From: Synechococcus sp.
GTDB lineage: Bacteria; Cyanobacteriota; Cyanobacteriia; PCC-6307; Cyanobiaceae
Assembly (NCBI GenBank): GCA_047284725.1
Contig: JBJBEO010000001.1
Span: 1,400,203 to 1,464,202 of the forward strand
Reading direction: 5' to 3'
Length of the DNA stretch: 64,000 nt
Position numbers and translations under genes: made by a program. Position 1 is the first letter of the stretch. The number at the start of each line of letters is the position of its first letter. The notes under the pieces were generated by a model. It worked only from the letters and a program-made list of their open reading frames with translations, had not been told where the DNA came from and searched no databases. Positions 8,785 to 63,304 of this stretch are shown here, piece by piece.

Positions 8785-8835
8785 GACGAAAGGGCTCGAC
8801 AGGTCAGGCAGCATGGAAGCAACGAGAGCAACCCC

Positions 8836-9486: not shown

Positions 9487-9541
9487 GGGGACCGTGACGA
9501 GGTAAATTGGTTGTTTGCACTGTCAGGGCCAGACGCCGCGC

Positions 9542-9811: not shown

Positions 9812-9836
9812 TTCGCCGCTTTCCAACGTTCCAGTC

Positions 9837-10250: not shown

Positions 10251-10288
10251 CGGTGCCTGTTCATCGCAACGACATCACTCAACACAAA

Positions 10289-13200: not shown

Positions 13201-13825
13201 CATCGTTGGTGGCAACCAGGCCGATGCCCAACTCCTTGGCAATCTTGACGATCTCCACATTGACGATCCGATCCTCCTGAGAGCCGTGATCCTGGATCTC
13301 GAGATAAAAGTCATCGCCGAAGACACCTTGGTACCAACGGGCCACGTCCCTGGCCACGTCAGGGCGGCCCCGCAGAATCGCCTGGGGGATCTCCCCGCCA
13401 AGGCAAGCGGTGGCAATGATCAGCCCCTCGCTGTATTGCTGGAGGAGATGCTTGTCGATGCAGGCACGGGAAAAAATGCCACGACCCCGCATGCCACGAA
13501 GATGACTGATGCTGGTGAGCTTCACCAGGTTGCGATAACCGATGGCATTTTTGGCCAGCACCACCAAGTGGTAGCGGCGCTCCTTTTTCTGTTGTGGGTC
13601 ATCGATCGACCCATTCACCACATACATCTCATTGCCGATGATCGGCTTGATGCCTGCGCCCTCGCACAACTTGAGGAGCTCAACGGCTCCGTACATCACC
13701 CCGTGATCGGTAAGCGCCAGGGCCGGCATCCCCAGCTCCTTGGCCCTCTCCACCATCTGCGGCAGCTGTGACGCCCCATCCAGGAGGCTGTAGTCACTGT
13801 GGTTATGAAGAGGGACGAATGCCAT
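10289..13825 (-). CDS. dnaE: DNA polymerase III alpha subunit (contiguous, no intein)
   Basis: PHP motif [35 protein letters not shown] and an OB fold. Confidence 0.98.
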
Positions 13826-13914
13826 GGCCCCAGATTAGGGGGCCACGCAAGATAGAGAGAAGCTCGACTGAAACAACCCCAGATATGGGGTGCACCCGAG
13901 CTGCGCTGACGGGA

Positions 13915-15378: not shown

Positions 15379-15409
15379 CGACAAGGTCTGCTACTCAGCA
15401 GCGACGCTA

Positions 15410-15658
15410 TCAGCCGTCGTCAGCTGTCAGGGTGAAGGGCTCGCCACGACGGCAGCGAACCAGCGTGTGGCTGAGATGTGCTGGCGCTTCTGACGACACG
15501 TCGTCGAGGAACACGGGGAGTTGCTTCAACAGGCTGGAACGGGTCACAAAAGGACCGAACCAATAGGTGGTGTCGGGTCCCTGGGTCTGAACCCGGGCCC
15601 ACCAAGCCAGACCAAGACCGTTGGCGACACTGCGCAGCGGCCTGTTCAGGAGGCCCAT
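15410..15658 (-). CDS. Small cyanobacterial protein, DUF1816-like
   Basis: GLAWWARV...P..TYWFGPF pattern. Confidence 0.75.
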   Translation of the reverse strand: MGLLNRPLRSVANGLGLAWWARVQTQGPDTTYWFGPFVTRSSLLKQLPVFLDDVSSEAPAHLSHTLVRCRRGEPFTLTADDG

Positions 15659-24297: not shown

Positions 24298-24371
24298 CGG
24301 GGCGTAGCGCAGCTTGGTAGCGCACCACTTTGGGGTAGTGGGGGTCGTGGGTTCAAATCCCGCCGCTCCGA
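24298..24371 (+). tRNA. trnP: tRNA-Pro(GGG)
   Basis: CGGGGCGTAGCGCAGCTTGGTAGCGC; anticodon arm CCACT-TTGGGGT-AGTGG; T arm GGTTCAAATCC; 3' CGCTCCGA with no encoded CCA. Confidence 0.95.
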
Positions 24372-47031: not shown

Positions 47032-48603
47032 CTACTGGCGGTCCTGGCGCGGTCGACCGAGCAGACGCGTGATCGGATTGCGGGAGGGGCGAGTCGTCTC
47101 AACGAACCCTGGCTCAGGCAGGGCGAACGCAGACTCCGCTTGCCCGTCGGCGGGGGATTGCCAGCGGGAAGGGTCAGCATCCTGGCCTTGGGAAAAGCGC
47201 TCCACTTCCGAGGCATCGGGGCCGGGCTCCTTGATGCCGCAGACCTCGCGATACATGCGGTCGTACTCCACAGCTGACCGCGTCCAGCTGTAGTCCTGCT
47301 GCATGGCGCGCCGCTGAAGTTGGCGCCAACTGTCTTGATGCCGATAAGCCTCCCAGGCCCTGACAAGAGCGGTGTAGAAATCCACTGGATCAAAGCGATC
47401 GAAGCAGAAACCTGTGCCGCTGTGATGGGCAGGGTCGTGGGGAGGAACGGTGTCGACCAGACCACCCACTTTGCGCACAACCGGCACACAGCCGTAGCGC
47501 ATCGCCATCAGCTGACTGATGCCGCACGGTTCAAAACGACTGGGCATCAGAAAGGCATCACTGCCGGCATAGATCAAACGCGACAGGGCGTCGTCGTAGG
47601 TGAGGAAGACGGCGACGCGACCGGGATGGCGGGATGCCAGTTGCCACAAGCCCGACTCCAGGCCGCGATCGCCAGTGCCGAGCACCACGATCTGGGTATC
47701 GGTGTAGGCGAGCAGACGATCAGCCACCTGCAGCAGAAGATCAACCCCCTTCTGATCGACGAGGCGACTGACCATGCCGAGCAGGAAGGTGTCGGGGCTG
47801 ACGTTGAGCCCCATCCGCTCCTGCAGCTCTCGCTTGTTGGCGGCGCGACCGGAAAGCTGGTCGGCGCTGTAATTCGCCGCCAAGGCCTTGTCGGTGGAAG
47901 GGTCCCAGGCCTCCAGATCGAGACCATTGAGGATGCCGCGGAGCTTTCCGGAGATGTAGTTGAGCAGGCCGTCGAGTTGCTCTCCGTATTCAGCGGTGCG
48001 GATCTCCTGGGCATAGGTCGGCGACACCGCATTGACCCGATCGGCATAGAGCAACGCCGCGGCCATGGTGTGGTCTCCCTGCATGTACCAGGGGCACCAG
48101 GTGATCCGATCCAGCTTCCAGCGCCAGGGCCCCTGATATTTGAGGTTGTGGATGGTGAACACCGTGCTGATCTCGGGGTCCTGATGCATCCACACCGGGA
48201 TCATGCCGGTATGCCAGTCATGGCAATGCAGCACGTTCGGCTTCCAGACGTTCCAGGCGAACTCCGCCGTGGCGCTGGCAAAAAACGTGAAACGCCAATC
48301 TTCGTCTTCTCCGCCGTAGATGCGCTCTGGATCAAAGACAGGGTGACCAACCAGATAGAGAGGCAAGCCAGTGGTGGGATGGCGCGTCTCATAGACGGCA
48401 AATTCGGTCCCCATCGTCTGCGCACGCCAGATCGGCTCAGCAGAGATGTCGAGACGGCTCCAGAGGCGGCTGTAGCCCGGCATGATCAGGCGTACATCGT
48501 GGCCAAGCTTGGCCAGGGCCGGAGGAAGGGATCCGACCACATCGCCCATGCCGCCGACTTTCACCATGGGAGCGCACTCGGCAGCAGCAAACAGCACGCG
48601 CAT
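47032..48603 (-). CDS. glgA: Glycogen synthase
   Basis: [30 protein letters not shown]; start at 48603 or 48615. Confidence 0.96.
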
Positions 48604-48687
48604 GGTCAGTGGCACTTACGAAAGCGCCGCGACTTTAGATTGAAATCCCATGAAAACTTGAAAGCATTGCTGGTTTCTGGCCACTGA

Positions 48688-49332
48688 TCAGGGCAGAACG
48701 GTGACCGGGGTCCCCACCCTCACAAGGTCGAACACTTCCTGCACGTTTTCTTCGTAGAGGCGCACGCAGCCGTGGGACACCGCGCGGCCCACCGTCCAAC
48801 GATGGGGCGTGCCATGAAAACCGGACACGGTGCAGCCATCAATGGCAAGGTACTTCTCACCATCCCAGCCATTGCGTCCCTTGCAATCGCGATAAAAGCC
48901 GATCCAACGGGAGCCGAGGGGATTTTTCCCACCCGGTGCAATCTGTTTGCCGTTGACGGGATGCGTCCAGATCGGTTGACGCACCTTCTCCAGCACCCGA
49001 TGGCTTCCGGCGGGCGTTTCCCAACCTTCCGTGCCGACTGCAGCCGGGTAGCGACGGCTGATTTGTCCATTGCGCATCACCAGAAGCTGGCGGTGCTTGC
49101 GATCGAGCACCAGTTGAAGGCCAAGGCGACGTCGCAGTTCCAGCGGCACCCGGGCCAGGGATTGCTCCAGAGAAATGGGGGCAGCTTTCGGAGGAATGGG
49201 ATCAGCCGGGCGGTGGCTGGATCCTGATGCCGGTTGCGCCTTCACAGGCACAGAAACCGCTGCAAGAGCAAGAGCCAGGGCCGATGCCGCCTGCAACATC
49301 GGGAAACGCATCGGCATCGCAATCTGCATCAC
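48688..49332 (-). CDS. L,D-transpeptidase (YkuD family)
   Basis: Signal peptide, TPAG, NPLGSRW, FHGT...GRAVSHGCVRL. Confidence 0.9.
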   Translation of the reverse strand: MMQIAMPMRFPMLQAASALALALAAVSVPVKAQPASGSSHRPADPIPPKAAPISLEQSLARVPLELRRRLGLQLVLDRKHRQLLVMRNGQISRRYPAAVGTEGWETPAGSHRVLEKVRQPIWTHPVNGKQIAPGGKNPLGSRWIGFYRDCKGRNGWDGEKYLAIDGCTVSGFHGTPHRWTVGRAVSHGCVRLYEENVQEVFDLVRVGTPVTVLP

Positions 49333-49371
49333 AACGGAGGTGGCACCAGTCTGTTTGACCCCAACGTTTAG

Positions 49372-50247
49372 CTAAGGCAACCAGGGAGTTGACGAAAAGT
49401 CAGGATCCCGTTTCTCGAGAAAGGCATTGCGTCCCTCCTGTCCCTCCTCTGTTCGATAGAACAGATGCGTGGCCTGGCCAGCCAATTCCTGCAATCCGGC
49501 CATGCCATCGGTTTCGGCGTTGAATGCGGCCTTGAGGCACCGGATCGCTGTGGGGCTGTGCTGCAGCACCTCCCGGGCCCAACGCACCCCCTCGGCCTCA
49601 AGCTGCTCCAGGGGCACCACAGCATTCACCAGCCCCATCGCCAGCGCTTCATCGGCACCGTATTGCCGGCACAGGAACCAGATCTCGCGTGCCTTGCGCT
49701 GTCCCACGAGGCGGGCCAGATAGCCGGCACCGAAGCCGCCATCGAAACTGCCCACCCGCGGGCCGGTCTGACCAAAACGGGCATTGTCAGCCGCCAGGCT
49801 GAGATCACAGAGCAGATGCAGCACCTGCCCTCCGCCAATGGCATAGCCCGCGACAAGGGCAATCACCACCTTGGGCAAGCTGCGGATCAAACGCTGGAGG
49901 TCGAGCACATTGAGGCGAGGCATCCCCTCCTCGTCGACGTACCCACCGTCACCCCTCACACTCTGGTCTCCGCCGGCGCAGAAGGCGTAACCACCATCGT
50001 CGGCAGGGCCCACTCCTGTGAACAGCACCACACCAATGCTGCTGTCATCGCGGATACGGGTGAATGCATCGCAGAGTTCCACCACTGTTCTGGGGCGGAA
50101 CGCGTTGCGGCGGTAAGGCCGATTGATCGCAACCCGGGCGATGCCATCACCGGAACGATCCACGAGGATGTCCTGATAGGCACCCAACGGATGCCAGGAC
50201 ACCCCGGACTCTCCGGGAAGAACCGACCGGGGCGGTGAGGCGGTCAT
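49372..50247 (-). CDS. menB: 1,4-dihydroxy-2-naphthoyl-CoA synthase
   Basis: [25 protein letters not shown]. Confidence 0.96.
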
Positions 50248-52046
50248 CAGGGCTCATCTGACACTCGAACCATTGTGATCTGCTGGATTTCCTGACGAAG
50301 GGTGGCCCGCAGCTCCGCATCTACTGCTCGATCCGTACAGACCCGCAGCAGGGCGACACCGGTCTGGGCCAGGCCCCATGCCAACGCGGGGGGGACATCC
50401 TCAAGGCAGGAGATCTGGCGACCAGGGATGCCATGGGCCGCAGCCAGTGCCAGAGGATCCACCTGCTGAGGCATGGCAAACAAGGCATCAAACGCTGACG
50501 CCGGTGCCGCTGGAACCGGCAATTGCTGAAAGATTCCGCCCCCACCGTTGTCGATCAACAACACCAACAGCGGCTCGGACTCCTGACGCGCATGGGTCAG
50601 CAACCAGCCGTTGCTGTCGTGAAGCAACGCCAGATCCCCAGTGATCAACAGAGTGCGGCCCAGCACCCGGGCCAGACCCAGTCCCAAAGACAGGGTGCCA
50701 TCAATCCCGGAGGCACCTCGAAAACTGAAGCAGCGATGGTGACCTTGCACACCTGACGCAAAGGCCTGCCAATCCCGCACTGGGCTGCTGGCTGCGAGCA
50801 TCACCGGCACATCCGCAGGGATGAGGGCACCAAGGCATTGCATCAGCGCAGGCTCCGTCACGGCACCCTCGCCAGGCAGCCGACGCGTCAACCACTCGGA
50901 CATCCTCCGATCGCGGTCTTGCCAGCCCTGAATGAGCGTCTGATGACGCATCGGAGCAGGATCCGGCAGGGCCTGAGCGGCAAGCCAGCGCACCAGCCCC
51001 TCACTCCACTGCAAGGACTTCTTGAGGGGATCCAACGACCGTGGCTCACCCTCACTGATCAGCAGCTGAGGCCCCTCACACCGTGTCAACCAGGCCTCCA
51101 GGCGCCGACTGGCGGGCATCGGCCCCAACCGCAGCACCTGCAGATCCGCCTGGACCATGCCGGAGGGCAACGGCAGCGCATCCGGCAGCAGAAGATCCCA
51201 GTAACGCACCTGACCGGGCAGGTCAGCCGGCACAGCCGCCAGTGGATCCACTAGTACAGGCCAGCCACTGCAGTGCTGCCAGTGACGCAGTGCGTCCTCG
51301 AAGGCCGCTCGCTCTCCGGCCAGACCTCGCCATGGTCCCGCGACCACCACCCCCGGGCGGGAAGCATCAAGACCACACTGAGGCGGCAAGCCGGAAGCCT
51401 TCGGGTCGGACCAGCAAGGCCGGACAAACCGGGGGGCGTTCTGGCGATGCTGACGCTGGTGGCCCCAGGCGATCCAGAACGCCTGCTGTTCCGCTTCTGG
51501 CGGATGCAGAGGTTCTTCAAACGGCAGATTGAGATGCACGGGTCCGGGGCGCTGGTGGGCCCGAAGCCAAACCTGCTCCGCCAACGCATCCAAGTGATCA
51601 GTGGTGACAGTCTCCAGCCCCTGACCCGGACCATTCACGACTGCACGGCAAACCGCCTCAAGAAATTCCTCCTGATTCACGGTCTGATTGGCGCCGCACT
51701 GCTTCAGACGCGCGGGTCGATCGGCGGTCAGCAGCAACAGGGGCTGACAGGAGCGATCGGCTTCCACTGCTGCAGGCAGAAGGTTGGCCACAGCGGTGCC
51801 CGAGGTGGTGATCACTGCTGAGGCGCACCCTCTGGCGGTGCTGCTGCCCAGTGCCAGGAAGGCGGCCGAACGTTCATCAATGGCGGTTTCGAGCTGGATC
51901 AGATCGGCCCGCGCCAGCCCCCCCGCCGCCAACGCCAGAGGGCCTGACCGGCTACCGGGACAAAGCACAACATGCTCCAATCCCTGGGCCTGGAGCCTTT
52001 CCAGCACGCACAGCGCGGCCGCAAGATTGGCGATGGGACGGGTCAA
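50247..52046 (-). CDS. menD: SEPHCHC synthase
   Basis: [47 protein letters not shown] start near 52046. Confidence 0.95.
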
Positions 52047-52118
52047 AGCAGACGCGGCGCCTGGGAAGACGCTCTGGAGGGGACGCTGATGCGATCCTCG
52101 TTGTACACGCAAGAGGCC

Positions 52119-52730
52119 ATGGCCAGCGAAGGCAAACCAAGCCGGCAGCAGAGTTGGCGGGATGTGCTGCTCTGGGTGGTGCTCGCCTTGCTGCTGCGCT
52201 GGCTCGTACTCGAACCTCGCTGGATACCGTCCGGCTCCATGCTTCCCACCCTGGAATTGCAGGACCGCATCCTGGTCGAGAAAATCCGCCCCAAGATGGC
52301 CGACCAACGCCATCAACCCCTTGGCATCGGAAACGTAGTGGTCTTTGCAGTGCCCGACGCCCTGATCGACGCGGGGTATGACCCCAACACCGCTCTGATC
52401 AAACGGGTGGTCGCGGGACCCGGAGACACGGTGGAAGTGCGTGAAGGCCGGCTTTGGCGGAATGGCGAAACCGTGAACGAACCCTGGCGCGAAGAAGCCA
52501 TGGATTACGTGATGCCGGCGCAACGCGTTCCACCGGGCGCCCTCTGGGTGCTGGGGGACAATCGCAATGCCAGCCTCGATTCTCACCTCTGGGGGCCCCT
52601 GCCTCAGGAACGTGTCATCGGCACCGCGGTGTGGCGTTACTGGCCTTTGAATCGGTTCGGTCCGATACGGTTCCCCCTCCAAACCGGATCGGGTGACGAA
52701 CAGGGGGCTGGGTTAAGGTCGGGTTCTTGA
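52119..52730 (+). CDS. lepB: Signal peptidase I
   Basis: IPSGSMLPTL, IKRVVA.PGD, GDNRNASLDSH. Confidence 0.95.
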   Translation: MASEGKPSRQQSWRDVLLWVVLALLLRWLVLEPRWIPSGSMLPTLELQDRILVEKIRPKMADQRHQPLGIGNVVVFAVPDALIDAGYDPNTALIKRVVAGPGDTVEVREGRLWRNGETVNEPWREEAMDYVMPAQRVPPGALWVLGDNRNASLDSHLWGPLPQERVIGTAVWRYWPLNRFGPIRFPLQTGSGDEQGAGLRSGS

Positions 52731-52745
52731 GAGGCGGAGGTCGGA

Positions 52746-53093
52746 ATGTTTGATCCCGAATTCTTGACCACCGAAAACCAAGATGGTCAGCCTGTGAATG
52801 GCTTGATTCAGTACCTGCAGGATCAATCCCCTGATGTGCTCCAGCGGGTTGCGAAATCCGCCAGTAACGATATCCAGGACATCATCCGCCACAACGTGCA
52901 GGGTCTGCTGGGAATCCTCCCCGGCGAGCATTTTGAGGTGAAGGTCACCACCAATCGCGACAACCTCGCCAATCTGCTGGCCTCCGCGATGATGACGGGT
53001 TATTTCCTCCGGCAAATGGAGCAGCGCAAAGAACTGGAAGAGACCCTTTTTGCAGACGAGGAGATGTCGGTGAACCCGGATCCGGAGGTTTGA
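52746..53093 (+). CDS. DUF760-family protein
   Basis: N.LIQYLQ and LASAMMTGYFLRQMEQR. Confidence 0.85.
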   Translation: MFDPEFLTTENQDGQPVNGLIQYLQDQSPDVLQRVAKSASNDIQDIIRHNVQGLLGILPGEHFEVKVTTNRDNLANLLASAMMTGYFLRQMEQRKELEETLFADEEMSVNPDPEV

Positions 53094-53120
53094 GTCAGCG
53101 ACGTTGATTCAAGCAAGCGA

Positions 53121-54305
53121 TCATTCGATCACTTTGCCAACTGATTCACAGGGCGAGGCTGGCACGACTCCCAGATCCAGCAGTTGCTGATCAAGCGAAG
53201 CAAGAAAGGCCCAATTGCCCTGATCGGACGCCCAAGGCCTGGCCTCGATCGCACTGATCAACTCAGAGCACCGGTCTGGGCCAAAAGCCACAGGGGCGCT
53301 GTAGTGAGCTGGAATGAGCCAGCGCACTTCCGCATGAGACTGCAGTTCCTGGAGCCATGCCAGGAACACCTGCCGGGCCCGAGGCAACACCAGACGTTCC
53401 AACACGGGAGCGACCTGAAGCCTGGGAGCGACCTCTCCCATCAGCCCCTGAGCAGCCTGCTGCCACCCCACCTGCCATGCGAAGGGGTACACCCCAAAGT
53501 GGCAACGTCTGGAGCGCAATCCTGACTTGAAGGCGTAGCGAAGCACGTCCCCAATGCCCGGTACCTCAAGGGGTTCCGGCCTCAGATAGGACGCAAACAG
53601 CACCAACCTGGCCCAGCCTTGCCGCCGATTCGCTGGCGTGTCTTCAAGGGGCTGATCGCCACGCTCACGGGCGTGAAACAGCAACGGTGTTGGATCAGCA
53701 TCAAACACCGCAGGGGGTTCGGCGCTGATGCCGACAAGGGCATCCGTCACCAACAAGGCACCCGACGGGCAGTGCAGACAGCTGATCTCCTGAAAGCGAC
53801 CGGCACCCAGATCAAGAGGGCCGAGGGAGAACCACTGGCACACATCACCGTGAGGAACCCCGTCGTCGAGCAACACTTTGGTGCGCTGCGCCGGTACCCC
53901 CAGCCAGGCCAGGGGCAACTGCACTGGAAAGCTCCACTGGCCCGGACACACCCACACCTCCACATCCGGGAAAGCGCGGGCCAGGGGAGCGAGGGGAAGC
54001 TTGTGCTCCAAACCAGAGGCGGTGGGCAGCACGATGGTGCGCACGGGGCCGTGCTCAGCCTCCAGGGCCTGCACCATGGCACGCAGTTGCTGGGTGGGAG
54101 GCAGAGGGTTCACCAGCATCAACCCGCCTGGCACCTTCACGGCCGTCATGCGGATCGGAACCGCCACGTAATACACCCCCTGGAGCTGCTCAAAACTCCA
54201 GACCTGCCCAGGGATCAGTTCCTCAAAGTAAGTAACGCGATGGCCATAGGGGTACAGAGGCAGCAGCGGCCAGAAACCCCAGTACTGGTCGGCACGACTA
54301 TTCAT
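53121..54305 (-). CDS. DUF4336-like protein (metallo-beta-lactamase-like)
   Basis: WPLLPLYPYG, VPIRMT, SGLEHK, LLVTDA, IPAHY; its 5' end lies inside the left island repeat. Confidence 0.8.
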   Translation of the reverse strand: MNSRADQYWGFWPLLPLYPYGHRVTYFEELIPGQVWSFEQLQGVYYVAVPIRMTAVKVPGGLMLVNPLPPTQQLRAMVQALEAEHGPVRTIVLPTASGLEHKLPLAPLARAFPDVEVWVCPGQWSFPVQLPLAWLGVPAQRTKVLLDDGVPHGDVCQWFSLGPLDLGAGRFQEISCLHCPSGALLVTDALVGISAEPPAVFDADPTPLLFHARERGDQPLEDTPANRRQGWARLVLFASYLRPEPLEVPGIGDVLRYAFKSGLRSRRCHFGVYPFAWQVGWQQAAQGLMGEVAPRLQVAPVLERLVLPRARQVFLAWLQELQSHAEVRWLIPAHYSAPVAFGPDRCSELISAIEARPWASDQGNWAFLASLDQQLLDLGVVPASPCESVGKVIE

Positions 54306-54384
54306 TGCCAAGCCTCTCGCGCACCCTGGATTCGATAGCTCCAGCCCCATGATCACAGGTCTTGATCACCGATCGAGCACCCGC
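54259..54384. repeat. Approx. 126-bp imperfect direct repeat, left island boundary
   Basis: Matches 63179-63304; first 53 bp identical, 7 mismatches counted by eye in the rest. Confidence 0.93.
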
Positions 54385-54476
54385 ATCGCAAGCTCAGATT
54401 CAGACGAGCCCAGAACCAAGAATCAAGGTGCAAACCAGGATAGAGATTTCTGGAATCACCAAACTGACTCTTCCCA

Positions 54477-54734
54477 AGAGTTCGACGTCTTGTCCTTGCC
54501 CTGACTGCGATCTCGGCACTGACCCCTCAAGTCGCATTGGCCCAAATAGACCATCCCCATGGCCATCACGGCCATGGAGTGCATCACGCAAAACCTGAAA
54601 ACACGAAAGGGGCAGCGTTGATCGTCTCGAGAGACGCCCACAGTTGCACTCAGACTTCCTTCCATGACTGGATTCAACTGTCCCTTGATCTCGAGCTGTG
54701 CAACCGCGAACACAACGATGATCGAAATGCTTAG
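54477..54734 (+). pseudogene. Remnant of a secreted His-rich protein
   Basis: In-frame RVRRLVLALTAISALTPQVALA/QIDHPHGHHGHGVHH (signal peptide then His tract); no start codon between the TGA at 54465 and the signal peptide. Confidence 0.55.
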
Positions 54735-54802
54735 GTTCGCGCAACAATTCGATCAGCAAGCTATTGGAGCCCCGGGAGCTAAACACAAACAAAATTCAAA
54801 AC

Positions 54803-54832
54803 TTGACAAAGCCCCAACACCTAAGGTAGAGT
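54803..54832 (+). promoter_or_regulatory. Sigma70-type promoter of the precursor peptide gene
   Basis: TTGACA (54803-54808), 18-nt spacer, TAGAGT (54827-54832), A-rich tract upstream. Confidence 0.6.
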
Positions 54833-54865
54833 TAGGATAATGACTATTATGGCCATTAAAAAACC

Positions 54866-55048
54866 ATGGTGATCAAAAAAGTTACCATCGCAGATCTCGA
54901 GAACATCAGTGGTGGTGATTGCAAGGGCATAACCAGAAAAGTTTGCCGGGGCGAGAAAAAAGCCACCAAACAAATTGTCAAAGAATATGCAGAAAAACTG
55001 AAGGCGAAAAATGCGCGCCTCGAAAGCGGTGAAATCGAAGGACTCTAA
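54866..55048 (+). CDS. Double-glycine leader peptide precursor (CCRG-2-like leader), 60 aa
   Basis: Leader MVIKKVTIADLENISGG fits the xLxxxxLxxIxGG consensus; 43-aa core with 2 Cys and 9 Lys; a C39 transporter is nearby. Confidence 0.8.
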   Translation: MVIKKVTIADLENISGGDCKGITRKVCRGEKKATKQIVKEYAEKLKAKNARLESGEIEGL

Positions 55049-55093
55049 GTTCTCATATATTCATTCGATTCACCTCTGACATACTGAGCTTGC

Positions 55094-55140
55094 AAATGCT
55101 CTCAAGACGGCAACTACTGCCAATCTTGAGAGCATTTTAT
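55094..55140 (+). terminator. Hairpin after the precursor gene
   Basis: AAATGCTCTCAAGA / TCTTGAGAGCATTT perfect 14-bp stem with inner GGCA/TGCC, followed by T-rich sequence. Confidence 0.7.
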
Positions 55141-55326
55141 TGATTGAGACAAAACAGCCCCTAGCAAGGCTTGGGATCAGAAGGAAGCTGGAAAGTAAAT
55201 CCTGAAAAGCATCCTTCCAAATTAGATAGATTTTCGATGTCAGCTGTACAGTCAAAGCTAAAGAGCCTCAAGTATTTTTTTTGGCGACAAAGACAGGATT
55301 TTGCATCAAATAAATAGCCAGACAAG

Positions 55327-55461
55327 ATGGGCATCATTAAAGTCACCATCGACGTTCTCGAGGACATCAGCAAGGGAACACAGATGTGACTATCAAGAAA
55401 GGTTTGCAGAATCAAAACAACTCGAGAAGAGAAAAAACTGAACCCGCCCGGAGTTAACTAA
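55327..55461 (+). pseudogene. Degenerate second precursor paralog with in-frame TGA
   Basis: MGIIKVTIDVLEDISKGTQM*LSRKVCRIKTTREEKKLNPPGVN* aligns without gaps to the 54866 peptide. Confidence 0.75.
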
Positions 55462-55575
55462 CAAGAAATCCAGCGTCGAACATGATTCTGGAGGTCTCTA
55501 GATCTCCGGACCAAAAGCTTCTTACAACGAATGCATCAAAGGTGACCTTACTTCCAATACTCCAGCACGAGGCAC

Positions 55576-56799
55576 CTACGCAAGCATAAAAAGATCGCGA
55601 GGCTCCAATGGAGACAGCGGGAGAGGCTCGATCTCTCTGAACAAGTACGTGCATATATCTGCCCGCTGTTTAGCGAATAATTCGTCCCGTAAATCGCGAA
55701 CTTCAACAGGAACCAGATCCAATGAATACCGGCAAAGGAACTGCCGATACCAATGGAGAAATGACTCACTGTCTTCGGGAGCGAATGATGTCGGGTCCCA
55801 TCGGCGTTCCCTGCAGACCCGATTGAAATTCAAGAAACGGAAGTCATGTGGCTTACGCACAGATGAATGCCATACACGCTGTGGATCCAACGGTTGACGA
55901 TCTTCAGGATCTTCATCTAGCTGGACAACAGCCCAAAGGCGAGCACCGATCTCTCGTATCAGGTGGCGTTGCCATCCTTGATTCAGCCGAACAGGCGCTT
56001 GAAGACCCTTCCGTGGTTGCGGCACTGACTCGTCAGAGAGGAAGGTCATCCATTCACGCGTGTACTTGCGCTGCTGCTCGCCGTATTCAAGCTCGTGCCT
56101 GAGCCACTTGATCAAGAGAGGGCTACGGCTCATATCGTCCCTATCGAAACCTGCAAAGACTCCGGTGCAGTAGAAGCTGGCCAAGTCTTCGAAGAATTCG
56201 GGGCGTTGGACGGTAAAGCCTGGACAGAAGCGCTGGTACTCAGGCTCATGAGCCACGTCATACGAAATCGTCAGACTGTCGAAATCAGTCCCAATCCCCA
56301 ACTCCCTGTTAAGGTCCAGTCTGGCTAGGAACCAATAATCGAGCCCCACCGTCGCGACGGCTTCGGTGAGGAGGTGACAGAAAACGAAGGTCTCATAGTT
56401 ATCACTCGTTACGGGGCTGACACCAAAGCCCAATTCTGGAGCCAGGCCAGAAATCCACTGATAACCCAGAATATGAAGGTAGTCGTGAGCTAGGAAGGTG
56501 GCTTCCGGAAGGAGTTTGTCTTCTGGGTTGTACTCCCGGGTGTCGGAACCGGGATTGTCCAACCAACGATCCACAAAGGAGTTGGCCCTGTAGAAAACGC
56601 ATCCGCTCGCCGGGTTAAAACCAGCAAGCGACACTCTCACATGGTTTTGATAATTCCAACGAGCGTCAACCCCTCGACGTACGTAGCGAATTGACGGGTC
56701 AGCTAACGCACGGCGCAGCAGAGGGAGGCGCAGAAGAGAGCTTGCATGCGGATCTGCCGGTAGCACTGGACGATATCGATGCGGCATGGTGGAACTCAA
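55576..56799 (-). CDS. Uncharacterised protein with an HDxxH...E putative metal site
   Basis: FLAHDYLH followed by HLLTEAVA; start overlaps the transporter stop (TTGA), or ATG at 56787. Confidence 0.8.
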   Translation of the reverse strand: MSSTMPHRYRPVLPADPHASSLLRLPLLRRALADPSIRYVRRGVDARWNYQNHVRVSLAGFNPASGCVFYRANSFVDRWLDNPGSDTREYNPEDKLLPEATFLAHDYLHILGYQWISGLAPELGFGVSPVTSDNYETFVFCHLLTEAVATVGLDYWFLARLDLNRELGIGTDFDSLTISYDVAHEPEYQRFCPGFTVQRPEFFEDLASFYCTGVFAGFDRDDMSRSPLLIKWLRHELEYGEQQRKYTREWMTFLSDESVPQPRKGLQAPVRLNQGWQRHLIREIGARLWAVVQLDEDPEDRQPLDPQRVWHSSVRKPHDFRFLNFNRVCRERRWDPTSFAPEDSESFLHWYRQFLCRYSLDLVPVEVRDLRDELFAKQRADICTYLFREIEPLPLSPLEPRDLFMLA

Positions 56800-59009
56800 A
56801 GAGATTCGAACAGGGTCAAGGCGTCGGTTTCTTGCTGAGGGCGACTTGACCCTTCACCCAGCGTCAGGTCATGAGCGATCTGCCCATCTTTGAGGACAAC
56901 GATTCGATCGGCAACCCTCAGGATGGAGGGCCGATGAGTAATGAAAGCGATCGTGCGACCTTCGCGGCGGAGGTTCAACTCGGTGAGGACCGCCGCCTCT
57001 GCGGTGGCATCCAGGTACGACGTCACCTCGTCAAGAATCATCACGCTGGCATCTCGGTAGAACAACCGCGCCAACGCCAAGCGCTGCTTCTGACCGCTCG
57101 ATAGCCCTAAACCCGACTCTGGGATACGCGCGTGGATGCCACGTGGAAGCTGTTTGACAAAGTCAAGAATCTGGGCCGATCGACATGCCTCAAGCGCCCG
57201 ATCGGGGTTTGGAGGCCTGCCGCTTCCATAGGCCACATTGTCCAAAAGAGTTCCTTGAAACAAGGGATGCTCTGACAGTGCCAGGCCTGTTGTACGGCGC
57301 AGGTGCTTCCTCTTGATGCAGCGAATATCACGGCCGCCGATGGTCACGCGCCCCGATTGAGGAGACAGTAGACCTTGTATCAGATGTGCAATCGTGGTTT
57401 TCCCCGAGCCACTCCGACCCACGATGGCTGTAATTTCACCCTGACGGAGAACGAGGTTCAGGTCATCCACCACAGGCGGGGCTGTCGGGGAGAAGCGGTA
57501 ACGGACAGCCTCGAAAGCGATGTCTCCCTCAACAGGGCCTGCGTAGTCACCCCCTTCGTCCTCCGCCGACCGGTTAAGAGCGTCCTCAACACGGTCCAGC
57601 GAAAGTCGGGCCTCCTGGAGATCCACTCCTTTTTCGGCCAGCTCGGAAACCGGATTCAGGAATTGAGCGACGAGCAGACTCCCCGCCACCATGTCACCGA
57701 CGGTGAGATCCCCGGTCACCACATAGTGAGCGCCATAAAGGAGAGTCCCGATCGAAACGAGGGACTCGAAGGCATTCGTCAACGTGCGGGCGGGCAGGGT
57801 TTGCCGTTGGCCGTCCCGAACCGACACCAGGAAGTCATCCAATCGCCCCAGATAAGCTGCACGCGCATCGTCCTCGGCCCCGAGCGCCTTGATTGTGCGA
57901 ATCCCGGCCACCTGCTCAAGCAGGATCGTCTCCAACCGAGCCGACCGCTGAAGTTGGACCGCTTTGACTCGGCGTACGACAGGCCCCAAACACACTGGAA
58001 TCAGTGCGTAGAGCGGAGCAATCATCAAAGCTACAGGCAAGAGAGGTTCGGCAACCACCCAAAGCAGAACCAAGTACACAGCGAGGTTCCCAAACTCGAG
58101 AATGGTCTGCAGCACCTGGCCCGTCAAAAAATCCCGAACCGCTGAAACCTCGTCCAACGCTCCGGTCACATCCCCAGGCGTCTGAAGCTGAAACTCGGAA
58201 AGCGGGAGCGAAAAAAAGCGCTTGTAAAGATCCTCGCTTAGGTGGCGATCGATCCGATAGGAGACCTTATCCAGCAGCCATTGACGCCAAAACCGGGAGA
58301 CGTTCGAAAAAAACGACACCGCGAGATAGCCAACGGCAACCCATCCGAGCAGCATGCCATCGCGCCGCGGCATGACTTCATCAAACAGGAGTCGACTCAA
58401 CCAGGGGCCGACCGCACCCAACGCCAGCAGCGCCGCGGAACAGAAAAACGCCGCTAAGAGAATTCGCCGATGTCGACGCAACAGCCTCAGGTATCGCCTC
58501 ACATTCGGGCGAACCTCCGGCCACTCCCAGAACTGGTGATGGGGCACCATCAACAAGCAGATGCCAGACGTCCGCTCGTTGAGTTGGGCGACCGGGACCG
58601 AAAGAGGTCCGATCGCCGGATCAAGGATGGCTGCGTTATTTCCTCGGATCCCGTAGATCACCACAAAATGATGATCCATACCGACAATGACCGGCAGGGG
58701 TACAGATGACAGGTCAGTACTGAAGTCAAGCGAGAGCCCGAGAGACTCGAAACCGAGCTCCTGGGCTCCCAACTGAATGTCGCGAAGCGACGCACCTTCT
58801 CGACCGTCTCGCACGACCTTTCGACAACGCGCCAAGCCTGCTCGGCGGCCGTAGATCTGAATCACGGTTTCGAGGCAGGCAGCCGCGCAGTCCATTTCAT
58901 GGTGTTGAGGGACGAAACGCGCACGTCGTCGGGGGACTTTCGCAGCTAGCTCGCGGAGTTGCTGAAGTTCAGCAATCACGTCGTCGGCAACGGTCACGAG
59001 CGGTGACAA
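56796..59009 (-). CDS. Peptidase C39-containing ABC transporter (PCAT)
   Basis: QHHEMDCAAACL (catalytic Cys), HHFVV (His), ILDPAIG (Asp), TM domain, GRSGSGKT, LSSGQKQR, MILDE, ITHR. Confidence 0.93.
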   Translation of the reverse strand: MSPLVTVADDVIAELQQLRELAAKVPRRRARFVPQHHEMDCAAACLETVIQIYGRRAGLARCRKVVRDGREGASLRDIQLGAQELGFESLGLSLDFSTDLSSVPLPVIVGMDHHFVVIYGIRGNNAAILDPAIGPLSVPVAQLNERTSGICLLMVPHHQFWEWPEVRPNVRRYLRLLRRHRRILLAAFFCSAALLALGAVGPWLSRLLFDEVMPRRDGMLLGWVAVGYLAVSFFSNVSRFWRQWLLDKVSYRIDRHLSEDLYKRFFSLPLSEFQLQTPGDVTGALDEVSAVRDFLTGQVLQTILEFGNLAVYLVLLWVVAEPLLPVALMIAPLYALIPVCLGPVVRRVKAVQLQRSARLETILLEQVAGIRTIKALGAEDDARAAYLGRLDDFLVSVRDGQRQTLPARTLTNAFESLVSIGTLLYGAHYVVTGDLTVGDMVAGSLLVAQFLNPVSELAEKGVDLQEARLSLDRVEDALNRSAEDEGGDYAGPVEGDIAFEAVRYRFSPTAPPVVDDLNLVLRQGEITAIVGRSGSGKTTIAHLIQGLLSPQSGRVTIGGRDIRCIKRKHLRRTTGLALSEHPLFQGTLLDNVAYGSGRPPNPDRALEACRSAQILDFVKQLPRGIHARIPESGLGLSSGQKQRLALARLFYRDASVMILDEVTSYLDATAEAAVLTELNLRREGRTIAFITHRPSILRVADRIVVLKDGQIAHDLTLGEGSSRPQQETDALTLFESL

Positions 59010-59093
59010 TGAACTTGGTTGATCTCTGCATTATTCGATCTATTGCGCAGTCCAGTTACACCTAAATGCAAATTTAAAAAACTTGTATCGCCC

Positions 59094-59696
59094 ATGGCAT
59101 TGGATCGCCCCCTCGAACCGCCCGCAGTCGACACGCTCACTCACCCCCCGAGCCTTCAATCACTGACAATTGCTGATCGCAGTGTGTGGGTGCTCGACCA
59201 GGCTGTACCTCGAAACATTGTCGAAACCCTTTACGCCGACCTGTCGACACGCACGTTTACGTTCACCAATCAGGACAGCGAGGCCACCGAGTTCGCCAAC
59301 CACCTCATCCATCAGGGAGAGCTAGCCGATGAGAATCCCAACACGATCGGAAGAGTCGTCGAAGCCGCTCAAGCATTGATCCACAAACTGGGCCATCCGA
59401 CATTTCCACTCGAGCGGGTGTACGTCACGACAGCGCTCTTCGGCGACTATCAGCACGTCCACCGCGACGGTGATGTCTGGACGGCGCTCTACTTCGTCAA
59501 CCCGGTTTGGCATACCGATTGGGGCGGGGAACTGCTCCTGTATCACGACGACAATGCCAGTATCTCCACAGCGGTGGCACCTCGCTTCGGCCGACTTGTG
59601 ATCTTCGATGGGATGCTGAACCACCGCGCGGGTGTCCCAAGCAAATACTGCCCAATCGCACGCTTGGCACTGGTCATCAAGTTTCTGCGAAGCTGA
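59094..59696 (+). CDS. 2OG-Fe(II) oxygenase (prolyl-4-hydroxylase-like), paralog 1
   Basis: HRDGD, WTALYFVN..W..DWGGELL, GRLVIFDG, NHRAG, distal Arg. Confidence 0.9.
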   Translation: MALDRPLEPPAVDTLTHPPSLQSLTIADRSVWVLDQAVPRNIVETLYADLSTRTFTFTNQDSEATEFANHLIHQGELADENPNTIGRVVEAAQALIHKLGHPTFPLERVYVTTALFGDYQHVHRDGDVWTALYFVNPVWHTDWGGELLLYHDDNASISTAVAPRFGRLVIFDGMLNHRAGVPSKYCPIARLALVIKFLRS

Positions 59697-59903
59697 AAAA
59701 GGAGTCCAAGTGGATTCCGGGCTGACCCCGATGAAGCAGTCGGATGGGTCGACCTGGCACTTGCATCTTGGAGGTGCCGGATCGAGGTGGATGGCGGGGA
59801 AGCTGGGGGGACCCTTTCAATCGTCAGAGCGCTGCGCGCCTGTTCCTGCGCTCGGTGACAGGGATCGAATCATGGCCATGCCGTTGTAGGTGTGCTAAGA
59901 ACA

Positions 59904-60560
59904 ATGAGCCATCTTCGAAGCGTTGTTGTGGACTTCGAAGCGTTGTTTCGCCCCCCCGAGCCACCAAATTTCGACGCAGAACCGGTCATTCGTCCCTTGA
60001 TGGTGGGGGACGGAAGCTATCCTGCCTGGCTCGTCGACAACCTCATTGAAGCGGCTGCAATCAAACCGCTTCATGAGTGGTTTTTGACGCTTGGCTATAG
60101 CTTTGGCGACGTTGATCGAGCTGACACGAGCTTCATGCGACATCTTGTGCACTACTTCGACGAAGAAGAGTGCGAAGGCAATACGCCAGTAGCAACCATT
60201 GTGGCTACCGCTCGTTCAGTTGTTCAATCGCTGGGTCTTAATGCAGACCAACTCGAACGTGTCTACGCCAACTTCAACCTGTTTGGAGATCAGCAGTTCT
60301 CCCACACTGATGGGGATTGCTGGACAGCACTGATGTTCGTGAATTCGAGCTGGTCAGTTGATTGGGGGGGCGAGCTTCTTCTCTACGAACAGGGACCAGG
60401 CTCGGTTGCCCTGGCCATACCGCCACGACCCGGTCGGATGGTTGTTTTTGATGGCAATCTTGAACATCGCGGCGGATCTCCAAATCGCTTTTGCCTCGAC
60501 GCCCGTATCACAGTCGCGACGAAGTTTGTTCGCCCCACGGGAAGCGATGCTCGGCCCTGA
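59904..60560 (+). CDS. 2OG-Fe(II) oxygenase, paralog 2
   Basis: HTDGD, WTALMFVN..W..DWGGELL, GRMVVFDG, EHRGG, distal Arg. Confidence 0.9.
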   Translation: MSHLRSVVVDFEALFRPPEPPNFDAEPVIRPLMVGDGSYPAWLVDNLIEAAAIKPLHEWFLTLGYSFGDVDRADTSFMRHLVHYFDEEECEGNTPVATIVATARSVVQSLGLNADQLERVYANFNLFGDQQFSHTDGDCWTALMFVNSSWSVDWGGELLLYEQGPGSVALAIPPRPGRMVVFDGNLEHRGGSPNRFCLDARITVATKFVRPTGSDARP

Positions 60561-61659
60561 ATCCGCCGAAAAGCAAGCGTTCGACAAACGCTTCGAAGGC
60601 TTGCTTGACGTGTCACTCGTTGACTTGGTCGTTCCCGAAAACGCACCACGCGTGTTCTCATACGAGCTCGATGATGAAGTGCTGGCCTTCCAACGCCAGG
60701 AATACCTGAATGAGCCCCTCTTTGTTCCTGAGCTTTGGGCGACATACCGCCTTCTGGTGCGTCTCTTTGAGGGCCCGCTCCGCGCGCCAGGCCCAGATCA
60801 AGCAGACCTCTGTTTCCTGCCGCTCTTTTTGCCAGTCTTTGAAGCGATTGAGTTTGACCTACGGCCAACGATCTCGTCGTTGGAGTTATTGAACGCGGGT
60901 CCTCGTCATGTAGTGGCGTCGCTCTGGGACGGCTACCCTCGCCCGCCCTCTCGTCGAGCCAACCCCTACTCAATGCAATCGCTGGGATACCTCTTGGAGC
61001 CGACTGGCGTGGATAGCACCTGGTCCTGGATTGATGAGCGGTGGCGAGTGCTGACCCTGTGTGGAAGCATCGACGTGGACCCAGACGACGTCAACGTATT
61101 CCCGCTGGTCTTTCCCAACGACAGATCGCCAGGTGAGCGCCCTCTGCTGTATTCCTTCTGCGGCACCACCACCTATGACTCGGTCCCAACCGATCACATC
61201 CGCGGGCATGGCCGTGCATCAGCTTGGGAACACCTCATCTCGTCAAACCATCGAGACGTGTTCATCGGATCGCCATCGGACGCCCAAACGCGGTTCGGCC
61301 TAGCAACTCCGCTCAGGACGTTGCCGACAATGAGCCGATTCACCCTTTGCCCGGCAGGTTGGTCGCGCTGGTCATTCCGCATTTTTGAAGCACTAGAAGC
61401 CGGGTCGATCCCTGTCATCCTGAGCGATTACTCAGTGATGCCCTTCGCTGACCAGCTCGACTGGGACGCCTTCTCTCTGTATCTGCCCGAGGACGCGTTG
61501 GAAGATATCGACGATGTAATCCGCTCACTAACTCCGCAACGGGTCGCAGGTCTGGCGGCTTCAGCGCAGCACGTACGCAGACATTTGGGTCCAACTGGCC
61601 TGGCAAGCATGGTCACAACGGCACTGACCGACGTCTCGGAGGACCGGGCGCATGGGTGA
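60547..61659 (+). CDS. Exostosin-like (GT47) glycosyltransferase, paralog 1
   Basis: P.QADLCFLP, RPLLYSFCG, SRFTLCPAG...SFRIFEALEAGSIPVILSD...PF...LDW..FS. Confidence 0.85.
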   Translation: MLGPESAEKQAFDKRFEGLLDVSLVDLVVPENAPRVFSYELDDEVLAFQRQEYLNEPLFVPELWATYRLLVRLFEGPLRAPGPDQADLCFLPLFLPVFEAIEFDLRPTISSLELLNAGPRHVVASLWDGYPRPPSRRANPYSMQSLGYLLEPTGVDSTWSWIDERWRVLTLCGSIDVDPDDVNVFPLVFPNDRSPGERPLLYSFCGTTTYDSVPTDHIRGHGRASAWEHLISSNHRDVFIGSPSDAQTRFGLATPLRTLPTMSRFTLCPAGWSRWSFRIFEALEAGSIPVILSDYSVMPFADQLDWDAFSLYLPEDALEDIDDVIRSLTPQRVAGLAASAQHVRRHLGPTGLASMVTTALTDVSEDRAHG

Positions 61660-62794
61660 ACTCCACGATCCTGTCGAAAAGCAACGACGCGTGGCGTCCA
61701 TCAAGGCCGACATCGAAGAAGCCCTGGACGGTTTTATCCCGCCTCCGGAGGCCCCAAGGATCTGCACCTACCCCCTGGACGAAAGCATCACCGAGTTCGA
61801 GTTGGACGTCTTTCACCACGTCCCCACGATGCTGCCGGAGGAGCGTGGGACCTTCCTACTGGTTGAGCATGTTCTGCAGCGAATACTCGGGACCGAATCA
61901 CCAAACGAAGCAGATGCCTTCTTCGTTCCCCTGTACTTCCCGGTGCATGAAACCGAAGAGATCAACATCGAAGCCGCCATGTCGGGGCTTGAGTACATCA
62001 ACAGCGGCAAGAAGCATATTCTGTGCTCCCCCTGGGACACCTACCCTCGCCCGATCATGCGGCGCGCCAATCGGTACTGCGTCATCGCCGGCCAGCGCTA
62101 TGGCCACCTGGAGTGGCTTGAGAACCAGCGATGGCTAGATGACCGCTTCATGCTCTTCACCACAGAATCCACAGTCGACCTGCACCCGAACGACATCGGG
62201 ATTCTCCCTTCGATCCTTGCTGGCCCTGAAGGGCCTCCTGCGAGCGAGCGACCGCTTCTCTACTCGTTCTGCGGCGTCCTCTGCTACGACACCATGGCGC
62301 CGAACCACGTGCGCGGAGAGGCGAACCTTCCCCATTGGCAGTCGATGCGTGCGTCGCAAACTCCCGACGTTTTCGTGGGAACTCTGAACGATGCGCGGGC
62401 GCGGTTCGGAAACGCCACAACATTCAGAGATCTACCAGCCATGAGTCGCTTCACGCTCTGCCCCGCAGGGTGGGCGCGCTGGTCTTTTCGGCTGATGGAA
62501 GCGGTGAGTGCGGGTTCAATCCCGGTGCTTCTATCTGACTATTACGTGCGTCCGTTCTCACCATGGGTGGCCTGGGATCGATTCTCTCTGCGCCTGCCCG
62601 AGCGGGCTTTGAGCCAAATTGACCCAATACTCCGATCACTGCCACAACGCAGGATGGAAGGCCTCTCACGAACATGCGGAGCTGGCGCCGCGAGACTGGA
62701 CTATCGCTCTATGGCTCAGTGGATCATCGCTGCACTGATGAAACGTCTGGTCATGCATCCATCCCATCCGTATTCCCCTGCAGAAAAACACTAA
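61652..62794 (+). CDS. Exostosin-like (GT47) glycosyltransferase, paralog 2
   Basis: PNEADAFFVP, RPLLYSFCG, SRFTLCPAG...SFRLMEAVSAGSIPVLLSD...PF...VAWDRFS. Confidence 0.85.
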   Translation: MGELHDPVEKQRRVASIKADIEEALDGFIPPPEAPRICTYPLDESITEFELDVFHHVPTMLPEERGTFLLVEHVLQRILGTESPNEADAFFVPLYFPVHETEEINIEAAMSGLEYINSGKKHILCSPWDTYPRPIMRRANRYCVIAGQRYGHLEWLENQRWLDDRFMLFTTESTVDLHPNDIGILPSILAGPEGPPASERPLLYSFCGVLCYDTMAPNHVRGEANLPHWQSMRASQTPDVFVGTLNDARARFGNATTFRDLPAMSRFTLCPAGWARWSFRLMEAVSAGSIPVLLSDYYVRPFSPWVAWDRFSLRLPERALSQIDPILRSLPQRRMEGLSRTCGAGAARLDYRSMAQWIIAALMKRLVMHPSHPYSPAEKH

Positions 62795-62935: not shown

Positions 62936-63178
62936 CTCCCGAGGCATCTGAAATGTGAACCCTGAAGCGACAGAACGGATCATTTAGCTGGATTCGCTCA
63001 GGTCCTGATCACAGCACCCCAGATCAAGCTGGTGCTCTTGAACTGGAGCCTCAAACCGCCTGCTGATAGCACAATTCAGAGCAAGCCCGTGGTAGACGCT
63101 TCAACTCGCTTGTACCAATGTTCATGTACAACTCAAGGACAAGACCTTCAGACCTGTTGGCGCAACTAATAGCTAAGT

Positions 63179-63304
63179 GGCAGCAGCGGCCAGAAACCCC
63201 AGTACTGGTCGGCACGACTATTCATTGCCAAACCTCTCGCGCACCCTGGATTCCACAACTCAAGCCCCATGATCACAGGTCTTGATCACCGGTCGAGCAG
63301 CCGC
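63179..63304. repeat. Approx. 126-bp imperfect direct repeat, right island boundary
   Basis: Matches 54259-54384 and contains a truncated 5' copy of the DUF4336-like gene. Confidence 0.93.

Follow-up and report, generated by a model that had tools for sequence, protein, structure and literature searches.

A horizontally acquired seven-gene island in a Synechococcus chromosome as a candidate cluster for an undescribed, possibly glycosylated RiPP family

A 64-kb stretch of a Synechococcus sp. genome (assembly GCA_047284725.1, contig JBJBEO010000001.1, positions 1,400,203 to 1,464,202 of the forward strand; hereafter the window, whose own coordinates are used throughout) was analysed for the island of lower GC content that it carries. 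Open reading frame (ORF) listing, a repeat search and a GC scan delimited this island as seven genes in 8.9 kb flanked by a 129-nt direct repeat. They encode a precursor peptide with a double-glycine (GG) leader, an ATP-binding cassette transporter that contains a peptidase domain (PCAT), a protein named here after its HDxxH motif, two 2-oxoglutarate (2OG)-Fe(II) oxygenases (OG1 and OG2) and two glycosyltransferases of family 47 (GT47a and GT47b), and all catalytic motifs are intact. The island is very probably the cluster for an undescribed family of peptides that are ribosomally synthesized and then modified post-translationally (RiPPs). Taken as a whole, it is best explained, with somewhat better than even confidence, as a horizontally acquired RiPP cluster in which the HDxxH protein, the oxygenases and the GT47s tailor the peptide before export. 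Gene content, intact motifs, conserved synteny, a leader family and island boundaries make up the firm part of this account. An earlier note on this DNA had proposed a glyco-RiPP system here, and all seven genes that it named were recovered at their places by ORF listing and Pfam/NCBIfam searches.

Boundaries and gene content of the island

The island is bounded by repeats, as the earlier note had seen. The left copy of the 129-nt repeat (54256..54384) covers the 5' end and upstream region of an intact DUF4336 gene (53121-54356, minus strand), the source of the duplicated sequence. The right copy (63176..63304), 94% identical to the left one, carries a truncated duplicate of the DUF4336 N-terminus. 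GC content was 0.43-0.48 at 54500-55500, where the peptide gene lies, against 0.58-0.67 in the left flank (48000-54499), and was mostly under the left-flank level in the rest of the island. The island is read as a biosynthetic cluster that was acquired horizontally. ORF listing and Pfam searches found no sugar-nucleotide biosynthesis gene, flippase or polymerase within it.

The precursor gene (54866-55048, plus strand) encodes a peptide of 60 aa with the GG at residues 16-17, and the peptide was classed as a double-glycine precursor with predicted cleavage after the GG. The leader spans residues 1-17; the 43-aa core contains nine Lys, six Glu, two Cys and one Asn, and no Pro. Homologues were found at two of the HDxxH loci described below, L001 and L002 (hidden Markov model (HMM) E-values 2.4e-32 and 2.8e-28). 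The earlier note had given the precursor a promoter and a terminator, and this was upheld in part. A sigma-70-like match (TTGACA-18-TAGAGT, 54803..54832, plus strand) lies 34 nt 5' of the gene, but one site was found against a mean of 3.4 in shuffled sequences, so that the count is within chance and the site is not evidence alone. The terminator scan called nothing downstream of the peptide gene; folding instead picked up a terminator-like hairpin with a U-rich run (55094..55137, plus strand; -29.9 kcal/mol, z = -3.98), and none of 200 shuffles was as stable. A decayed second copy of the precursor lies at 55327..55440 (plus strand). Its leader part aligns to 54866 onwards, and it has deletions and, after codon 20, a TGA in frame.

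A profile of seven precursors was searched against 1.84 billion proteins and gave 17 matches at E <= 0.001. Sixteen of these were compared, P0172 being excluded as a 1078-aa repeat protein. Ten were of an alphaproteobacterial type and six of the window type; two of the six are the peptides of the window and of L001, so that the library added four window-type peptides. With the L002 peptide there were seven window-type precursors. Their cores share [RK]-[GA]-E-[KR]-[KI]-[AV]-[TI]-[KR]-[QE] followed by an invariant K-N, and the only invariant positions are a Glu, a Lys/Arg and the Lys-Asn pair. No position is Ser, Thr, Cys, Tyr or Pro in all seven, and the two Cys of the window core are missing from all six related cores. 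The Pro-free core noted earlier is a property of the window peptide; its relatives have Pro in their variable core ends.

The PCAT (56796-59009, minus strand, 737 aa) combines in one chain a C39 peptidase (PF03412, 8.2e-23, residues 31-157), an ABC transmembrane domain (PF00664, 1.6e-35) and an ATPase (PF00005, 2.1e-27). The Cys of EMDCAAACLE and the His of DHHFVV are present, and the protein was assigned to the PCATs. Its NCBIfam equivalog scores were under the cut-offs, and it therefore does not count as orthologous to any named exporter. Among the island proteins scanned for hydrophobic segments, only the PCAT had any; the HDxxH protein, the oxygenases and the GT47s had none. Genes for HlyD-type membrane-fusion proteins flank the PCAT at several other HDxxH loci, but neither the window nor L002 has one next to its PCAT (7769-9964 in L002).

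The HDxxH protein (motif HDYLH; 55576-56799, minus strand) is 407 aa long from a TTG, or 403 aa from the ATG at 56787. Depending on the start chosen, its gene overlaps the PCAT stop by 4 nt or begins 8 nt from it, and the two genes are translationally coupled. The earlier note had described the PCAT as coupled to an unknown metalloprotein, which agrees with this arrangement and with the lack of any Pfam or NCBIfam match. A search of 5590 candidates returned 192 homologues at E <= 0.001. Forty-six columns are invariant in 22 aligned sequences, among them H105, D106, H109, E146, D154, Y155 and W156. None of the 120 homologues listed carries a Pfam domain; at E <= 10, the 22 members gave four single-member noise matches only, and the profile matched none of the PDB sequences. 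The AlphaFold model is of high quality (pLDDT 92.7, pTM 0.92). Its top PDB folds, Cas3 HD domains, were not significant (E 0.46-1.5, TM 0.17-0.24), and the ESM Atlas returned DUF6782 (score 0.90, 146 shared features) as a weak lead only. The protein is predicted to be soluble. Two families of iron enzymes were rejected as assignments: SmaX-type HD-domain oxygenases, as DUF6817 (PF20680) and HD_4 (PF13328) were unmatched at E <= 10 in the 22 members, and the alpha-KG HExxH family (IPR026337/TIGR04267), as no NCBIfam match appeared at E <= 0.01 and the motif is H105-D106-x-x-H109 with the Asp invariant in the 22.

OG1 (59094..59696, plus strand; the ORF opens at 59019 and the start was set against the relatives L001 and P0147) and OG2 (59892..60560, plus strand; HxD...H...R motif intact) matched 2OG-FeII_Oxy_3 (PF13640) at 5.8e-09 and 1.6e-07 (37.2 and 32.6 bits; cut-off 27) and were assigned to the PHD/P4H-like 2OG-Fe(II) oxygenases. 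The iron triad H138, D140 and H192 and the 2OG-binding R205 are invariant in 21 oxygenases. The OG2 model (pLDDT 84.8) has a PHD/P4H-like fold. The best NCBIfam match of both proteins was the FlmC family 2OG-Fe(II) oxygenase (NF052475); with 102.6 and 95.4 bits against a curated cut-off of 240, they are related to this family and were rejected as members. The Caulobacter FlmC is described as cytidylyltransferase-like in one account, which leaves the name of the model unexplained there (PMC7591256). OG1 has 13 homologues. The sizes of their longest contigs equal those of GT47 homologues at 43701, 111770, 7226 and 6243, and those of HDxxH homologues at 43701, 111770 and 9589.

GT47a (60547..61659, plus strand, 370 aa; the ORF opens at 60358, with the ATG at 60547) and GT47b (61652..62794, plus strand, 380 aa) have no transmembrane segment. 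Both matched Exostosin_GT47 (PF03016; cut-off 33.4 bits), GT47a at 1.1e-22 and 81.2 bits and GT47b at 1.2e-22 and 81.0 bits, and the GT47 region matched the GT47 domains of EXT2 and EXT1 among PDB sequences (2.8e-09 and 2.3e-07). They were assigned to the GT47/exostosin enzymes, with glycosyltransferase activity as a prediction. The three families that had been proposed for checking by HMM (Peptidase_C39, 2OG-FeII_Oxy_3 and Exostosin) were all matched. With starts set against relatives, OG2 and GT47a overlap by 14 nt and GT47a and GT47b by 8 nt, so that the overlap of the last three genes reported earlier survived the correction. GT47b has 26 homologues among 5.8 billion clusters, all with PF03016. 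For nine of them the longest contig is equal in size to that of an HDxxH homologue (43701, 111770, 10463, 17564, 43245 or 220419). A tree was built from 25 of the 26 matches, the window pair and the L002 protein, P0129 being excluded as a 254-aa fragment. One clade (support 100/99) holds all but three outliers. GT47a and GT47b form two orthologue groups that branch largely in parallel over five contig sets, and the paralogue pair is therefore old and maintained.

HDxxH loci in other genomes and the surroundings of the island

A scan of species-representative genomes gave 60 HDxxH loci (L-numbers), mostly from Myxococcota, Bdellovibrionota, Acidobacteriota and Alphaproteobacteria. Neighbours were counted by tblastn within 9 kb of the HDxxH gene. 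A protein of about 500 aa, called C1 here, was found at 33 of the 60 loci, a PCAT at 25, a related 2OG oxygenase at 24 and a GT47 at one; none of these four was found at 15 loci, several of which are cut by contig ends.

The single locus with a GT47, L002, lies on a 220-kb contig of a Myxococcales metagenome-assembled genome (MAG) and holds all five gene kinds within 5.5 kb, at 38-56% identity to the window. Its order differs from that of the island: the 2OG oxygenase (7110-7718) is on one side, followed by the PCAT (7769-9964) and the HDxxH gene (9974-11173), and the GT47 (11486-12604) is on the other side, with the precursor (11264-11470) between HDxxH and GT47. The set is flanked by unrelated genes, a Cys-rich protein and a PIN toxin pair. 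Because L002 repeats the combination of peptide, PCAT, HDxxH, 2OG oxygenase and GT47 between unrelated genes, the gene set is not a chance neighbourhood. L001 carries the precursor, the HDxxH gene (69%), the PCAT (76%) and an oxygenase of OG1 type (60%), and then reaches its contig end. As far as context shows, the genes for the oxygenases and the GT47s form one system with those for the peptide and the PCAT and are no stray polysaccharide operon.

The leaders form a family with the consensus M-x-IKKVT-[IV]-x-DL-x-N-[IV]-x-GG. Using the pattern K-x-[LV]-T-[LIV]-x-[DE]-L...G-[GA], 43 small ORFs were found across 34 of the 60 loci; as the pattern was written after the sequences had been inspected, this count is descriptive and not blind. 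Most of these ORFs lie 40-360 nt upstream of the HDxxH gene on the same strand. The HDxxH protein would read the leader, since the leader is the only peptide feature, and HDxxH the only protein, common to the leader-bearing loci. The earlier note had listed this protein as an 'unknown metalloprotein' coupled to the PCAT. It is no accessory: with 192 homologues, it defines the family and is the most widespread of its components. A 2OG oxygenase accompanies it at many loci that lack a glycosyltransferase. GT47, for its part, is a lineage-specific addition.

At L011, L038, L043, L050 and L051 the precursor gene is repeated in tandem, in two or three paralogues that share the leader and whose cores contain Cys, which suggests further sub-families of the HDxxH system. 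Five alphaproteobacterial loci (L003, L012, L013, L029 and L035; at about 9.5-11.8 kb where the flanks are full) are three-gene modules of a Lys-rich small ORF, an HDxxH gene and a 2OG oxygenase. The small ORF has the shared leader motif without the GG, and its core aligns with the window core; the operon includes neither a PCAT nor a glycosyltransferase, and unrelated genes adjoin the modules. C1, absent from the window, lies directly 3' of the HDxxH gene in L004-L059 (e.g. L059:6206-7711). Searches of Pfam, NCBIfam and the PDB sequences left it unmatched. In the ESM Atlas the nearest cluster is labelled 'MchC protein' (SelO domain in 35% of members; score 0.96, 205 shared features), which points to a microcin-H47-like peptide-activating enzyme. 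The oxygenases of the C1-type loci form a clade distant from OG1 and OG2. At some HDxxH loci, genes for JmjC-domain (cupin) oxygenases come besides or in place of the PF13640 oxygenase (L025:7328-8356 and 13653-15467; L042:5115-6287).

The remaining window is housekeeping chromosome (DnaE, DnaG, MenB/MenD-like, GlgA, EPSP synthase, GlmU-like, DUF1350 and DUF760), and an Rfam search over its 64 kb found one tRNA only (24298-24371). At its far left, a gene for a Y-family (ImpB/UmuC-type) polymerase (84-1358, plus strand) is followed by one for a protein of 821 aa that has cadherin-like and bacterial Ig domains (2133-4598, plus strand); a further accessory region may lie here. A His-rich ORF of 65 aa (HPHGHHGHGVHH, 54537-54734, plus strand), which is located in the island's left arm after the repeat and before the promoter of the peptide gene, may be spurious. 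A defence system was considered and rejected: the PADLOC matches were to generic ABC-ATPase and generic 2OG models only, and no PADLOC model matched the HDxxH protein, the GT47s or the peptide.

Candidate chemistry and competing explanations

In the favoured reading the 60-aa precursor would be made in the cytoplasm, where the soluble HDxxH metalloprotein would bind its leader. This protein and the PHD-like oxygenases would act on the Lys-rich, probably helical core, the oxygenases most likely hydroxylating a side chain, with Lys or the invariant Asn as candidates. The two soluble GT47s, as old and separately conserved paralogues, would then add a sugar taken from a housekeeping nucleotide sugar, and the PCAT would cut after GG17 and export the product. 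This glyco-RiPP chemistry is plausible and unproven; we infer all of the reactions and the order in which they occur, as well as the acceptor residue, the sugar and what the product does. The GT47s are slightly more likely than not to act on the peptide. That the sugar goes onto a hydroxyl made by the oxygenases is a tentative proposal, less likely than not. What stands of the glyco-RiPP system proposed earlier is the RiPP cluster and the tie of the oxygenase and GT47 genes to it, through L002, GT47 co-divergence and equal contig sizes; the sequence of hydroxylation and then glycosylation is still an inference. The fullest version, a new RiPP class with a cationic helical peptide, PHD-like hydroxylation of Lys or Asn, GT47 O-glycosylation of that hydroxyl and a leader-reading HDxxH metalloenzyme of a fold not represented in the PDB, is put forward as a rather doubtful possibility.

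The conserved residues of the core bear on the acceptor. Because Ser, Thr, Cys, Tyr and Pro are not invariant, a conserved GT47 site would have to be Lys, Asn or Glu, and this limit would favour a hydroxylated acceptor or an N-linkage. The lack of a classical invariant acceptor fits a sugar on a hydroxylated residue and is not proof of it. Glycosylation within the variable core tail is possible too.

Several observations weigh against the favoured reading. In the PDB, the OG2 model comes closest to PolD (9blq, E 2e-09, TM 0.62-0.69) and PasI (9ei6), enzymes of high-carbon nucleoside-sugar pathways, which outrank prolyl hydroxylases; the protein prolyl hydroxylases PHD2 and EF-Tu P4H match nearly as well (TM about 0.6), so that on the model the oxygenase fold appears equally near to nucleoside-sugar tailoring enzymes and to protein prolyl hydroxylases. 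The nearest relatives of OG1 and OG2 lie in the modules of peptide, HDxxH and 2OG oxygenase that lack a PCAT, a GG and an operon glycosyltransferase. The oxygenase therefore has a role that does not depend on sugar, and its pair with HDxxH is the older unit, to which sugar is an option. The earlier note had held that homologues found mostly away from a PCAT or GG peptide would speak against it; for the GT47s, among the few contexts seen, this was not the pattern, and there the GT47 gene lies with HDxxH. Equal contig sizes are an indirect sign of the co-location of GT47 and HDxxH. As a GT47 is near HDxxH at one of 60 loci only, GT47 is dispensable for the HDxxH family. Foldseek found nothing in the PDB at E <= 0.001 for the HDxxH model, and what suggests that this protein is an enzyme and a leader reader is its conservation. 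Finally, the island has neither an HlyD partner nor an immunity gene.

The rival that survives best, although unlikely by our analysis, is that two independent routes act on one peptide: the HDxxH protein and a 2OG oxygenase would carry out a two-step oxidation, and the GT47s would glycosylate the peptide directly, for instance through an N-link to the invariant Asn or an O-link to a non-conserved Ser/Thr, with no need for hydroxylation. The five alphaproteobacterial modules, which pair HDxxH and a 2OG oxygenase with a homologous Lys-rich peptide, speak for it. The frequencies near HDxxH (24 of 60 loci for the oxygenase against one for GT47) point the same way, and a cascade of a 2OG oxygenase and a second metalloenzyme is documented in GG/PCAT RiPP clusters (PMC12186529). 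On the other side, the HDxxH protein is unmatched by the domains of the second enzyme of that cascade, the cores lack a classical invariant acceptor for direct glycosylation, and the numbers, two oxygenases with two GT47s in the window and one of each in L002, hint at pairing.

It is improbable that the operon of oxygenases and GT47s has a function apart from the peptide genes, for example as a module for a cell-surface glycan that only shares the island with them. GT47 members are best known from polysaccharide synthesis, the operon is transcribed divergently from the peptide/PCAT/HDxxH genes, and 59 of the 60 HDxxH loci have no GT47. L002 nevertheless rearranges the genes and keeps all five kinds in 5.5 kb, the contigs of nine of the 26 GT47 clade members equal HDxxH-bearing ones in size, the proteins of the operon have no transmembrane segment, a flippase, polymerase or sugar-precursor gene is missing, and a tblastn search with GT47b gave zero matches on 72,556 plasmids.

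Very improbable is a tailoring by the oxygenases of the sugar or nucleotide-sugar donor of the GT47s that leaves the peptide alone: PolD and PasI work in nucleoside-sugar pathways and the best NCBIfam model, scoring under its cut-off, is named after a gene of a flagellin-glycosylation locus, but the nearest oxygenases lie in modules with no operon glycosyltransferase and no annotated sugar gene, the protein prolyl hydroxylases are almost as good neighbours, and the island has no gene for sugar-nucleotide biosynthesis.

Relation to known systems and significance

The glycocins (sublancin/SunS, glycocin F and pallidocin) resemble the cluster in their GG leader, in the C39-ABC exporter that removes it and in cytoplasmic glycosylation before export, as proposed here. 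They differ in their enzyme, a SunS-type GT2, and in its substrate, a helical hairpin stapled by disulfides in which Cys, Ser or Thr is the acceptor; the window has GT47s instead, adds oxygenases and an HDxxH protein, and its seven related cores have no conserved Cys, Ser or Thr. Membership of the glycocins was rejected, as the island has no GT2 domain, the six related cores lack the two Cys of the window peptide, and an invariant Ser or Thr is missing. Class IIb microcins (MccH47/MccE492, with MchC/MceJ) have a GG leader, PCAT export and a carbohydrate-containing appendage. The cluster shares the GG-leader, PCAT-exported peptide with them, and the C1 protein of other HDxxH loci most resembles 'MchC protein'; the window, unlike these, has no C1.

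Hydroxylation followed by glycosylation is known in eukaryotes from the Hyl-Gal-Glc of collagen, the Hyp-arabinosides of plants and the Hyp-glycan of Skp1. In the plant Hyp-arabinoside pathway, ExAD is a GT47 enzyme (PMC5371791). A PHD/P4H-like 2OG oxygenase makes the hydroxyl in these pathways and glycosyltransferases extend it, the same logic as is proposed for the window cluster, but they are secretory or cytosolic systems that act on Pro or Lys of large proteins.

Among bacterial RiPPs, SmaO and SmaX are described as a 2OG hydroxylase and a second iron enzyme that convert Asp to aminomalonate in GG/PCAT clusters, and the same source counts 24 such clusters without a known class-defining enzyme (PMC12186529). 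As in the window, a 2OG oxygenase and an atypical His/Asp-motif metalloprotein lie beside a GG peptide and a PCAT. SmaX is placed there among the HD-domain proteins (by HHpred, DUF6817/HD_4), and its catalytic residues are numbered H31-Q147; by this description the window HDxxH protein is set apart, being twice as long, with no Pfam match at E <= 10 and no significant fold neighbour in the PDB. CorC, a divergent PF13640 oxygenase, is reported to make 5-hydroxylysine in the myxobacterial RiPP corallotide, and is a precedent for Lys hydroxylation by the Pfam family of OG1 and OG2 (PMC13097080). According to that report, however, an ATP-grasp enzyme has already locked its Lys into the isopeptide bond of a graspetide, and corallotide carries no sugar; the window island has no ATP-grasp enzyme. 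The alpha-KG HExxH enzymes (ChlH, BpmH and PflC/PosC), described as presumed peptidases that are actually iron enzymes acting on RiPP precursors (PMC12636437), have in common with the HDxxH protein an H-acidic-x-x-H motif. They differ from it in the motif itself, HDxxH in the window, in the family model, which it does not match, and in that a separate canonical 2OG oxygenase is present beside it.

Full-text literature searches found no paper that links GT47/exostosin enzymes to a RiPP, nor one on hydroxylation followed by glycosylation in a bacterial RiPP, in agreement with the view of the earlier note that the combination is not a described RiPP class. A term search through the text of a 2011 survey of cyanobacterial bacteriocin clusters turned up neither a glycosyltransferase nor an oxygenase (PMC3140520).

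As seven genes in 8 kb make a small cluster, and one whose tailoring enzymes are predicted to be soluble, co-expression can address the question directly. If the proposed chemistry is true, RiPP glycosylation would occur without GT2 enzymes or Cys/Ser/Thr acceptors, a first role would be assigned to a bacterial cytoplasmic GT47, and collagen hydroxylysine glycosylation would have a counterpart on a bacterial ribosomal peptide. A function would also emerge for the HDxxH family, which has no Pfam model and no structural relative and which lies beside leader-bearing peptides in several phyla. With its boundaries and its nearest relatives in Myxococcota MAGs, the island is a clean case of a whole peptide pathway entering the chromosome of an unrelated host.

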